Below are positions 12,578 through 15,500 of a DNA stretch of 64,000 bases, piece after piece. A program made the position numbers. The DNA lies in assembly GCF_056712565.1 (NCBI RefSeq), contig NZ_CM160072.1. One strand, written 5' to 3'. Each line of letters opens with the position of its first letter. Within the stretch, counting starts at the first letter, position 1.

Positions 12578-15500
12578 TAAAAAATGATTACTGGAGCACA
12601 TAATGAAAACGAATAATGCCGGTTATATTATCGGCGCGTATCCCTGTGCACCTTCTTTTCACCAAAGAAGTGAAGAGGAAGAGAAGGATTTCTGGCGACA
12701 ATTATCTGAGACTCCAGACATTTTGGGGCTGGAACAACCTTGCCTGGAAAATTTTCACCCGCTGGGCGATCAATGGTTACTCCGTCATACGCCAGAGAGC
12801 TGGAAATTTGTCGTCACCGCAGTGATGGAAACCATGCGTCGCCGCAGCGAAAACAGCGGGTTTGGTCTCGCCTCCAGTGATGAAGAACAGCGCCAGGCCT
12901 GCGTGGCGTACTATCGCCACCTGTTCAATAAAATCAACTCATTGCAGGCTAATAAAGTGCTCGCACTGGAGCTCCAGGCTGCACCGTTAGCAACGAATCC
13001 TAATGTTATGCAAGCGACGGACGCTTTTGCCCGCTCATTGAAAGAAATCGCCAGTTGGGACTGGCCGTGCAAGCTGGTGCTGGAACACTGCGACGCCATG
13101 ACATCTTCTTCCCCCCGAAAAGGCTTTTTGCCTTTAGAAAATGTGCTGGAAGTTATTACCGATTATGACATCAGCATCTGTATCAACTGGGCGCGCTCTG
13201 CCATTGAAGGGCGCAATACAACGCTGCCGCTGACCCACACCCAAATGGCGAAACAAGCCGGAAAACTCGGCGCGTTAATGTTCTCTGGTACGACGCTAAA
13301 CGGGGCATACGGCGAATGGCAGGATTTACACGCACCGTTTGCACCATTCTGCGCAGAAAGCCTGATGACCACAGATCATGTTCGCGAGTTATTTAATGTA
13401 GCAGAATCGTCAACATTGCATTTTGCTGGGATCAAGCTACTGGAAATAAATGCGACGGCTGATGTGCACCATCGCATCGAAATATTACGCAACGGCATTC
13501 ACTCTCTGAATGAATCTCGTTAAACAGAACCATTTATATATCACTTTGAATATCTAATTAGCCGTTTTCTGATAATTATTACGAATATTAACAACATTAG
13601 CGCATAAAAAATATTGCATAACCAGAAGGACTCGTTATGAAACGGATACTCGAAGGCATTCTTGCGATCATCATCGCAATACTGTCTTGTATTATTTTTA
13701 TTAATATCATTCTTCGATATGGATTCCACACAAGTATATTATCGATTGATGAATTATCCCGACTTTTATTTGTCTGGTTAACCTTTATTGGCGCAATCGT
13801 TGCTTATATGGACAACAGCCATGTGCAGGTTACTTTTTTAGTCGAAAAACTCTCACCGGCTAATCAACAACGTGTTTCGCTGCTAACCCATACGCTCATT
13901 TTATTGCTGTGTCTGGGGCTGGCCTGGGGCGCTATAGAAAAAACAGCGCAAGACTGGAGCAACTTATCGCCCATTCTTGGCGTCCCCATTGGCTTAATGT
14001 ACGCCGCCGCTATCCCCACCAGTCTGATTATCGCATTGCTGGAATTGCGTCACTTATACCGGCAGTTCACAAATACCCCCAGCCGAAACCAACAAGGAGC
14101 CTGACGATGACAATCCTTATATTTATTGTCAGTTTGTTAGGGGCTATCGCAATTGGCGTTCCCATCGCCTGGGCATTATTACTGTGCGGCATTTCATTGA
14201 TGTTCTGGATGGATATCTTTGATGTGCAAATTCTGGCACAAACGTTGGTAAATGGCGCAGACAGCTTCTCCCTGTTAGCCATCCCCTTCTTTGTACTGGC
14301 GGGTGAGATCATGAACGCGGGCGGCCTGTCGCAACGTATCGTCGACTTGCCAATGAAACTGGTAGGCCACAGGCCAGGCGGTCTGGGTTACGTGGGCGTG
14401 CTGGCAGCGATGATCATGGCAAGCCTGTCCGGTTCTGCGGTTGCTGATACCGCAGCTGTCGCGGCGCTGCTGGTGCCGATGATGCGCCAGGCCAACTATC
14501 CGGTAAACCGCGCCGCCGGGCTTATCGGTTCCGGGGGGATTATTGCGGCCATTATCCCGCCTTCCATACCACTCATTATCTTCGGCGTCTCCAGCGGACT
14601 CTCCATCAGCAAACTGTTTATGGCGGGCATTGCGCCAGGCATCATGATGGGCGTCACGCTGATGGTTACCTGGTGGTGGCAGGCAAAACGACTGAATTTA
14701 CCTTGTCAGCCGAAAGCCTCACTGCGAGAAGTCTGGCAATCCTTAGTTTCCGGTATTTGGGCGCTCTTTTTACCGATAATTATTATTGGCGGTTTCCGTT
14801 CGGGGTTATTTACACCGACCGAAGCAGGCGCGGTTGCCGCCTTCTACGCTCTGTTCGTCTCGGTGGTGGTCTATCGCGAGATGACCTTCTCCACGCTTTA
14901 TCATGTGCTGATTAACGCGGCAAAAACCACATCCGTGGTGATGTTCCTGGTGGCCTCTGCTGCGGTATCTGCATGGCTTATTACGATCGCCGAATTACCC
15001 ATGATGGTATCGGAGCTATTACAACCGTTGGTTGATTCGCCTCGCTTATTATTCATCGTCATTATGCTCGCTATTATGGTGATCAGTACGGTCATGGACT
15101 TAACGCCTACCGTATTAATTCTTACACCAGTATTAATGCCATTAGTGAAAGAAGCGGGAATAGATCCGGTCTATTTCGGCATCATGTTTATTATCAACTG
15201 TTCAATATCACTGATTACGCCTCCAGTCGGTAATGTTCTTAACGTGGTATGCGGCGTGGCGAAACTTAAATTTGACGATGCGGTAAAAGGCGTTGCGCCT
15301 TACGTCATGGTTTTATTCATGTTGTTAGCATTATTTATTTTTATACCGGAGCTCATTACCGCTCCTCTTAAATGGATGAGTTAAAAGGAAATCATAATGA
15401 AATTACGTTCTGTAACCTACGCTTTATTAATTGCCGGAGTGGCGACGTTCAGCACATCTTCTCTGGCGGCACAATCATTACGTTTCGGTTATGAAACCTC

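Follow-up and report, generated by a model that had tools for sequence, protein, structure and literature searches.

YiaX1, a DUF4862 protein of the yia operon with a predicted xylose-isomerase-like fold and a proposed accessory role in 2-keto sugar acid catabolism

The yia operon serves the uptake and catabolism of 2,3-diketo-L-gulonate, a breakdown product of oxidised vitamin C. In a 64,000-nucleotide stretch of DNA (contig NZ_CM160072.1 of NCBI RefSeq assembly GCF_056712565.1; hereafter the window), a complete open reading frame (ORF) stands between yiaL and yiaM of this operon. An earlier note, made by reading the sequence, had taken it for an extra gene, possibly of a domain-of-unknown-function family or of the yiaX type reported in Klebsiella, and had suggested that it contributes a further catabolic step. 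We consider it probable that the product, YiaX1, is a soluble cytoplasmic enzyme of the yia operon that performs carbonyl-adjacent acid/base chemistry on a 2-keto sugar acid as an accessory step. The evidence comes from the conservation of the gene, the predicted fold and active-site layout of its product, and the company that its relatives keep in other organisms.

Identity and conservation of yiaX1

All coordinates of the earlier note were confirmed. yiaX1 (12603-13523, plus strand, stop included) encodes 306 amino acids from an ATG start and is preceded by a Shine-Dalgarno-like TGGAG (12592-12596, plus strand) six bases 5' of the ATG. This motif lies within a spacer that, by direct reading of the sequence, measures 22 nt and follows the yiaL stop codon (TAA at 12578-12580). 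No overlapping ORF of at least 80 amino acids was found at yiaX1 on either strand. The protein matches Pfam family PF16154 (DUF4862) with an E value of 1e-94 (score 317.7; residues 9-294 against positions 1-291 of the 291-position model). This is its only significant Pfam match, and all 96 aligned relatives match the same family; the suggestion of a domain-of-unknown-function family was thus borne out. YiaX1 is a plain member of DUF4862, with no feature that sets it apart, and the family has no assigned function. The 2.2 kb surrounding yiaX1 are 100% identical to the Escherichia coli type strain ATCC 11775, in which RefSeq lists an identical protein as “DUF4862 family protein” (WP_000856282.1).

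Relatives of YiaX1 are numerous: a word-indexed database search returned 544, and an exhaustive search gave 556 clusters (50% identity), of which 446 had E ≤ 1e-10. The ratio of nonsynonymous to synonymous substitution rates (dN/dS) is 0.07-0.10 against the orthologues of E. marmotae, Salmonella, Citrobacter, and Klebsiella, and GC content overall and at third codon positions (GC3) is similar to that of neighbouring genes. The full-length Pfam match, the hundreds of relatives, the low dN/dS, and the neighbour-like GC and GC3 together indicate that yiaX1 is a functional gene under strong purifying selection and not a chance reading frame. Curated enzyme families gave no further lead: an NCBIfam search of YiaX1 returned no family at E ≤ 0.01, isomerases and epimerases such as hydroxypyruvate isomerase, OtnI, and IolE included. 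Sequence searches of the PDB with the single protein and with the 96-sequence profile gave no meaningful match, and neither the NCBIfam nor the Pfam search found a DUF386 (TIGR00022) match in YiaX1.

The name derives from Klebsiella pneumoniae, for which an operon yiaKLX1X2PQRS has been described (Campos et al. 2008, J Bacteriol 190:6615, as cited in a passage of PMC4324149). Klebsiella loci show the domain order IclR, then Ldh_2-DUF386-DUF4862-MFS-FGGY-OMPdecase-AP_endonuc_2-Aldolase_II, that is, yiaK-yiaL-DUF4862-MFS-lyxK-sgbH-sgbU-sgbE, where MFS denotes a major facilitator superfamily permease. Because this order matches the published operon, the DUF4862 gene occupies the X1 position, as the earlier note had suspected of a yiaX-type gene. 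In both Klebsiella and the window the gene comes immediately after yiaL, within an operon that adjoins yiaJ and occupies one and the same place in the chromosome, and the proteins are 74-75% identical over their full length, a figure for Klebsiella genome copies and not for the published YiaX1 sequence, which is reportedly from K. pneumoniae strain 13882. They differ in what follows: the MFS permease gene yiaX2 in Klebsiella, as in Citrobacter koseri, but the tripartite ATP-independent periplasmic (TRAP) transporter genes yiaMNO in the window, Salmonella, and E. marmotae. yiaX1 is already annotated in RefSeq and named in Klebsiella, and its presence is in itself no discovery. Annotation pipelines already use the name, and “Putative protein YiaX1” appears in a list of mutated genes within one clinical study (PMC13322237). 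Our literature searches found no paper mentioning DUF4862 or STM3670, only passing mentions of yiaX1 or yiaX2, and only unrelated papers for cg2931, cg2933, and cg2934.

A survey of presence and absence, proposed in the earlier note, found yiaX1 in Enterobacteriaceae beyond E. coli and its family in distant phyla. Among 5,426 complete E. coli genomes, 1,055 carry yiaX1 as a single chromosomal copy, which is intact and at least 99% identical in 1,035 of these carriers, including a strain of sequence type 131 (ST131). These genomes, with the relatives and the dN/dS values, contradict the idea of a strain-unique or nonconserved junk ORF. Salmonella and E. marmotae have the gene order of the window (yiaK-yiaL-X1-yiaMNO-lyxK-sgbHUE), C. 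koseri and Klebsiella have yiaK-yiaL-X1-yiaX2, and in all four the operon lies beside malS, avtA, ysaA, and yiaJ. In K-12 strain RP437, yiaL is followed directly by yiaM, as the earlier note had stated, across a 117-nt spacer in which no remnant of X1 was found. Since the same arrangement occupies the same chromosomal site in Salmonella, E. marmotae, C. koseri, and Klebsiella, yiaX1 is probably ancestral in the operon and vertically inherited, and the K-12 arrangement is probably derived. The description of the gene as an “extra” one did not, in consequence, survive: K-12 is the exception, and B2 E. coli (including ST131 and the type strain), Salmonella, Citrobacter, and Klebsiella keep yiaK-yiaL-X1.

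Predicted fold and active-site layout

An AlphaFold2 model of YiaX1 (96-sequence alignment; predicted local distance difference test score [pLDDT], 96.1; predicted template modelling score, 0.93) contains eight strand-helix units. The top Foldseek matches in the PDB were L-rhamnose isomerase, xylose isomerase, endonuclease IV, and UlaE, and those in AFDB50 were other DUF4862 proteins only. The model is an eight-stranded β/α barrel that superposes with high scores on several xylose-isomerase-like members. Structure prediction and Foldseek, both recommended in the earlier note, accordingly place YiaX1 as a predicted xylose-isomerase-like (β/α)8, or TIM, barrel. At the sequence level the relationship is faint at most. 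Identity to SgbU/UlaE and to other barrels of the superfamily (xylose isomerase, L-rhamnose isomerase, D-tagatose 3-epimerase, OtnI/YgbM, IolE, and endonuclease IV) is only 5-17%. Pfam AP_endonuc_2 (PF01261) is not matched by YiaX1 and is reached by three of the 96 relatives at E ≤ 1e-3 (best, 3.3e-6) and by 12 at E ≤ 0.1. An hhalign comparison of the DUF4862 family with SgbU was not significant (probability, 0.9%), and iterated hidden Markov model searches of the fetched loci yielded no additional xylose-isomerase-like protein with which the profile could have been improved.

Thirteen residues are invariant in the 96 members, which are 29-80% identical: E44, G88, P128, E161, H162, D164, K173, N195, W196, R198, D241, H243, and K278. 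All but G88 and P128 (11 of 13) have polar or aromatic side chains. In the xylose-isomerase-like superfamily, the active site lies at the C-terminal ends of the barrel strands, and in the model each of these 11 residues lies at or just after the C-terminal end of strand 2, 5, 6, 7, or 8. The catalytic-looking residues are identical in the clades of yia and sialic-acid (nan) operons; the enterobacterial clade differs mainly at E181V, S126A, P75M, and A100C.

The metal site was compared by strand registers in two models rather than by superposition. The SgbU ligands E153, D183, H209, and E255 were set by alignment to UlaE (PDB 3cqh; E = 5e-108 for SgbU against UlaE), and the strands were taken from an SgbU model (pLDDT, 83.5). 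At these registers, on strands 5 to 8, YiaX1 has E161, which matches the E-x-x-D motif, and then N195, F227/S228, and K278 in place of D183, H209, and E255. By strand register, only the first ligand of the Glu-Asp-His-Glu tetrad is kept in YiaX1. The conserved residues H162, D164, D241, and H243 could form a different metal site. As far as the models can be relied on, the active-site constellation is non-canonical but strictly conserved.

Genomic contexts and proposed function

The contexts of DUF4862 genes were sampled with the motif NWGRSAIE, taken from a 15-sequence subset, which gave 80 loci at one genome per species. This sample leans away from enterobacteria, whose motif is NWARSAIE, and consists mostly of Actinomycetota and Alteromonadales; only Serratia sp. 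H1w and a record named “Martelella alba” have a yia context in it. In the other loci the recurrent neighbours are a DHDPS/NanA-like aldolase (25 loci), a ROK kinase (21), NanE above its curated cutoff (21), a Sat-type ABC transporter (21), a BNR sialidase (12), and a NanR-like GntR regulator (12), with NagA in seven loci and NagB in six. At least one core sialic-acid or amino-sugar gene is present in 32 of 81 DUF4862 loci, and these are spread over three separate clades of the DUF4862 tree.

Two reference operons were checked with precomputed gene calls. In Microbacterium paraoxydans, a GntR regulator gene adjoins the series SBP-permease-permease/ATPase-ATPase-DHDPS-ROK-NanE-DUF4862-sialidase (SBP, substrate-binding protein), and the DUF4862 start overlaps the nanE stop. 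In Shewanella aestuarii, the DUF4862 gene is divergent from nagA-nanA and next to nanE-ROK-SSF. More generally, DUF4862 is built into the nan operons of Microbacteriaceae and stands beside the nan cluster in Shewanella and Colwellia (loci L097, 6439-12368, and L096, 802-9969). We found no paper that mentions this placement, and a survey of actinobacterial sialic-acid clusters is silent on the gene.

Other contexts widen the picture. In Cryobacterium, genes for an Eda-like aldolase and a KdgK-like kinase lie directly upstream of DUF4862; in Cellulomonas the gene occurs with an IclR regulator and a TRAP transporter; and short-chain dehydrogenases/reductases (SDRs), Gfo/Idh/MocA oxidoreductases, and 2-hydroxyacid dehydrogenases are also among its neighbours. 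A 40%-identical DUF4862 gene (locus L094, 6183-13896) sits in an apparent polysaccharide or CMP-sugar (CMP, cytidine monophosphate) biosynthesis cluster with a cytidylyltransferase-cupin fusion, two SDRs, a DHQ-synthase-like protein, a Gfo/Idh/MocA oxidoreductase, an SIS protein, glycosyltransferases, and a flippase. Because of this biosynthesis-type cluster, the family is not restricted to catabolism. The common thread of these contexts appears to be 2-keto sugar acids, namely N-acetylneuraminate (Neu5Ac), 2-keto-3-deoxygluconate (KDG), CMP-activated ulosonic acids, and 2,3-diketo-L-gulonate, all of which cyclise in solution. The presence of the family in sialic-acid operons of distant phyla likely narrows the substrate class to such acids.

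A parallel is offered by NanQ/YhcH (DUF386), a cytoplasmic Neu5Ac anomerase that opens the Neu5Ac ring for the aldolase (Kentache et al. 2021, PMC8141875). Like the NanQ gene, DUF4862 occurs as an accessory gene in terminal position in sialic-acid operons, and each of the two is linked to 2-keto sugar acids, but NanQ and YiaX1 are unrelated in fold and sequence. In yia operons X1 always directly follows the gene for the NanQ paralogue YiaL, and DUF386-DUF4862 pairs are seen again in relatives that share 60% and 45% identity with X1. Whereas yia operons contain both genes, no DUF386 gene was found within 8 kb of the non-enteric DUF4862 copies, those of nan operons included.

We propose the following. 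The chemistry of YiaX1 next to a carbonyl would be of a kind such as ring opening, keto-enol tautomerisation, ketol isomerisation, or epimerisation, and in Enterobacteriaceae its substrate would be either 2,3-diketo-L-gulonate or the 3-keto-L-gulonate made from it. The substrate carboxylate would be held by conserved basic residues, and YiaX1, acting with YiaL, would supply YiaK or LyxK with the right form of a substrate that is unstable and cyclises. The step would be accessory and not essential, because K-12 runs the pathway without yiaX1. From operon position and fold, it is plausible that YiaX1 contributes a further step to the catabolism of 2,3-diketo-L-gulonate or L-lyxose, as the earlier note had suggested from position.

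Several points weigh against this proposal. First, we found no paper in which any YiaX1 reaction has been tested, biochemically or genetically. Second, an X1 that acted only as a ring opener would do what YiaL, encoded next to it, is presumed to do already, and K-12, which lacks yiaX1, is reported to have a working yia operon all the same. Third, in the models three of the four SgbU/UlaE ligands are not conserved (D to N195, H to F227/S228, and E to K278), and because of this the mechanism of the superfamily cannot simply be transferred to YiaX1. Fourth, 22 of the 82 context-classified DUF4862 sequences (81 loci and the window) lack informative neighbours, e.g., with the housekeeping neighbours topA and astB in Paraglaciecola, and choosing loci through a single peptide motif makes the sample a biased one.

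A bolder version of the proposal is possible, although we hold it to be doubtful. DUF4862 might be an unrecognised, non-canonical branch of the xylose-isomerase-like proteins, with Lys, Arg, and His in place of most of the usual metal site, that carries out one generic ulosonic-acid step (ring opening or keto-enol/ketol conversion) and delivers the reactive form to the next enzyme in both sialic-acid and oxidised-vitamin-C pathways. If so, DUF4862 would supply an accessory enzyme so far missing from two host-nutrient pathways, standing in for an absent NanQ in the sialic-acid catabolism of Actinomycetota and Alteromonadales and working with the NanQ paralogue YiaL on oxidised vitamin C in Enterobacteriaceae. 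K-12-type E. coli, having lost yiaX1, would then truly differ in metabolism from B2 and extraintestinal pathogenic strains.

For the yia pathway alone, it is attractive to see YiaX1 as a ketol isomerase that converts 2-keto-L-gulonate to 3-keto-L-gulonate, like the 2-oxo-tetronate isomerase OtnI, and opens a second entry to the pathway ahead of the kinase LyxK. The wider family makes this unlikely, as relatives with identical invariant residues occur in sialic-acid and KDG contexts and these 3-deoxy acids cannot undergo 2-keto/3-keto isomerisation. Moreover, YiaX1 matches none of the NCBIfam isomerase models, and the adjacent transporter in E. coli B2 and Salmonella is the 2,3-diketo-L-gulonate TRAP system, not the MFS permease.

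The fold shared with UlaE/SgbU invites a different assignment, that of a sugar-phosphate epimerase or isomerase acting on a phosphorylated intermediate such as 3-keto-L-gulonate 6-phosphate or L-xylulose 5-phosphate and overlapping or extending the role of SgbU. Five conserved basic residues (R97, K173, R198, K278, and R291) could bind phosphate, and in Microbacterium the DUF4862 gene comes directly after kinase and 6-phosphate epimerase genes. We nevertheless give this assignment a rather small chance: comparing its profile with that of SgbU gave no significant match, YiaX1 has other residues in place of three of the four SgbU metal ligands, and the enterobacterial gene is grouped with yiaK-yiaL 5' of the transporter and not with the phosphate-level genes lyxK to sgbE.

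More improbable still is a hydrolase or hydratase that generates the transported or reduced substrate, e.g., a dehydroascorbate lactonase or, in nan operons, an opener of anhydro- or dehydro-sialic acids. The superfamily does include keto-sugar hydratases, dehydratases, and lyases (8ro4, 3ban, and 8tcd), and the sialidases of nan operons could release modified sialic acids. However, no signal peptide is visible by eye in YiaX1, import delivers 2,3-diketo-L-gulonate in hydrolysed form, and the oxidoreductase that usually accompanies the use of anhydro-sialic acids is absent from most nan loci. The xylose-isomerase-like superfamily is not known to include a lactonase. We give almost no credence to the UniProt-derived legacy names of some DUF4862 members (“Chemotaxis protein, resembles CheA” and “UDP-N-acetylglucosamine pyrophosphorylase”; a passage of PMC4324149 repeats “chemotaxis-like protein”) or to a decaying, functionless remnant, the former contradicted by a single TIM barrel with no kinase, HPt, CheW, or nucleotidyltransferase domain and the latter disfavoured by purifying selection, the thirteen invariant columns, and the intact copies at least 99% identical in 1,035 genomes.

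The accessory enzyme of 2-keto sugar acid metabolism that we favour would matter beyond the yia operon. Gut and extraintestinal pathogens draw on both oxidised ascorbate and sialic acid as nutrients from the host, and the YiaX1 reaction, once found, would fill a gap in both pathways and help explain the role of YiaL. This analysis adds the predicted fold and active-site layout of a family discussed in none of the papers we found, an altered metal site, K-12 as the probably derived state, and an apparently unreported placement of the family in sialic-acid operons. Together these make the function of YiaX1 experimentally approachable. Work could start readily, since YiaX1 is small and looks soluble and it is known which substrates and coupling enzymes to try.

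The operon in the window and its K-12 counterpart

The operon is flanked by yiaJ (10057-10905, minus strand; ORF and RefSeq), which encodes its divergent IclR-family regulator. It opens with yiaK (11106-12104, plus strand), encoding 3-dehydro-L-gulonate 2-dehydrogenase (NCBIfam NF009750, 670 bits against a cutoff of 316), and yiaL (12116-12580, plus strand), of the YhcH/YjgK/YiaL family (TIGR00022, 214 bits). After yiaX1 and an AT-rich spacer of 113 nt (13524-13636, plus strand) come yiaM, yiaN, and yiaO (13637-16383, plus strand; RefSeq), which encode the TRAP transporter for 2,3-diketo-L-gulonate, yiaM itself being at 13637-14104 (NF007374, RefSeq). The downstream pathway genes lyxK, sgbH, sgbU, and sgbE follow (16387-20084, plus strand; ORFs and RefSeq). 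A promoter and terminator scan found no same-strand terminator-like site between yiaX1 and yiaM, and promoter-like matches around yiaX1 were at chance level only. Most likely yiaX1 shares a transcript with yiaK and yiaL that starts at the promoter under YiaJ control.

The difference from K-12 extends beyond yiaX1. Nucleotide identity between the window and K-12 is 92-100% up to about position 12480, falls to 62-81% through yiaM-yiaN where alignable, and returns to about 90-95% after about 15400; most of the segments flanking this divergent block are 90-100% identical. The haplotype cassette so delimited (12480-15400) comprises the 3' end of yiaL, yiaX1, yiaM, and yiaN, and the comparison indicates that the difference is a divergent yiaM-yiaN allele and no clean indel. 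The yiaM and yiaN genes of the window are 72.7% and 77.3% identical to those of K-12 and 92.7% and 90.1% identical to those of E. marmotae, and the K-12 genes are about equally distant from the window and from Salmonella. No closer foreign source of the K-12 YiaN allele emerged from a search by amino acid identity, the nearest being a 91% cluster and E. albertii at 86%.

The “Martelella alba” record (NZ_SZPQ01000060.1; locus L009), which bears the name of an alphaproteobacterium, contains a complete enterobacterial-type yia operon with an MFS permease gene after X1. Its yia proteins are 46-77% identical to those of E. coli, from YiaK (77%) and SgbU (76%) down to YiaL (48%) and YiaX1 (46%). Horizontal transfer, contamination, and a misnamed assembly are each possible.

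Three minor observations concern gene calls and the surroundings. A 491-amino-acid ORF with a GTG start (13909-15384) extends yiaN in the 5' direction across yiaM in another frame. RefSeq places yiaN at 14107-15384 (425 amino acids), and some NCBI entries (cluster P0304, 491 amino acids) apparently use the over-long start. On the 3' side of sgbE, the window has aldB (20131-21669, minus strand) and then a gene for a 431-amino-acid Fic family protein (21777-23072, minus strand), where K-12 has AraC-family pseudogene fragments, yiaT, yiaU, and yiaV, a second structural difference at the locus (20085-23072 in the window). Finally, xylR is a frameshifted pseudogene in the RefSeq type-strain record but an intact ORF of 392 amino acids with an ATG start at 3439-4617 in the window.

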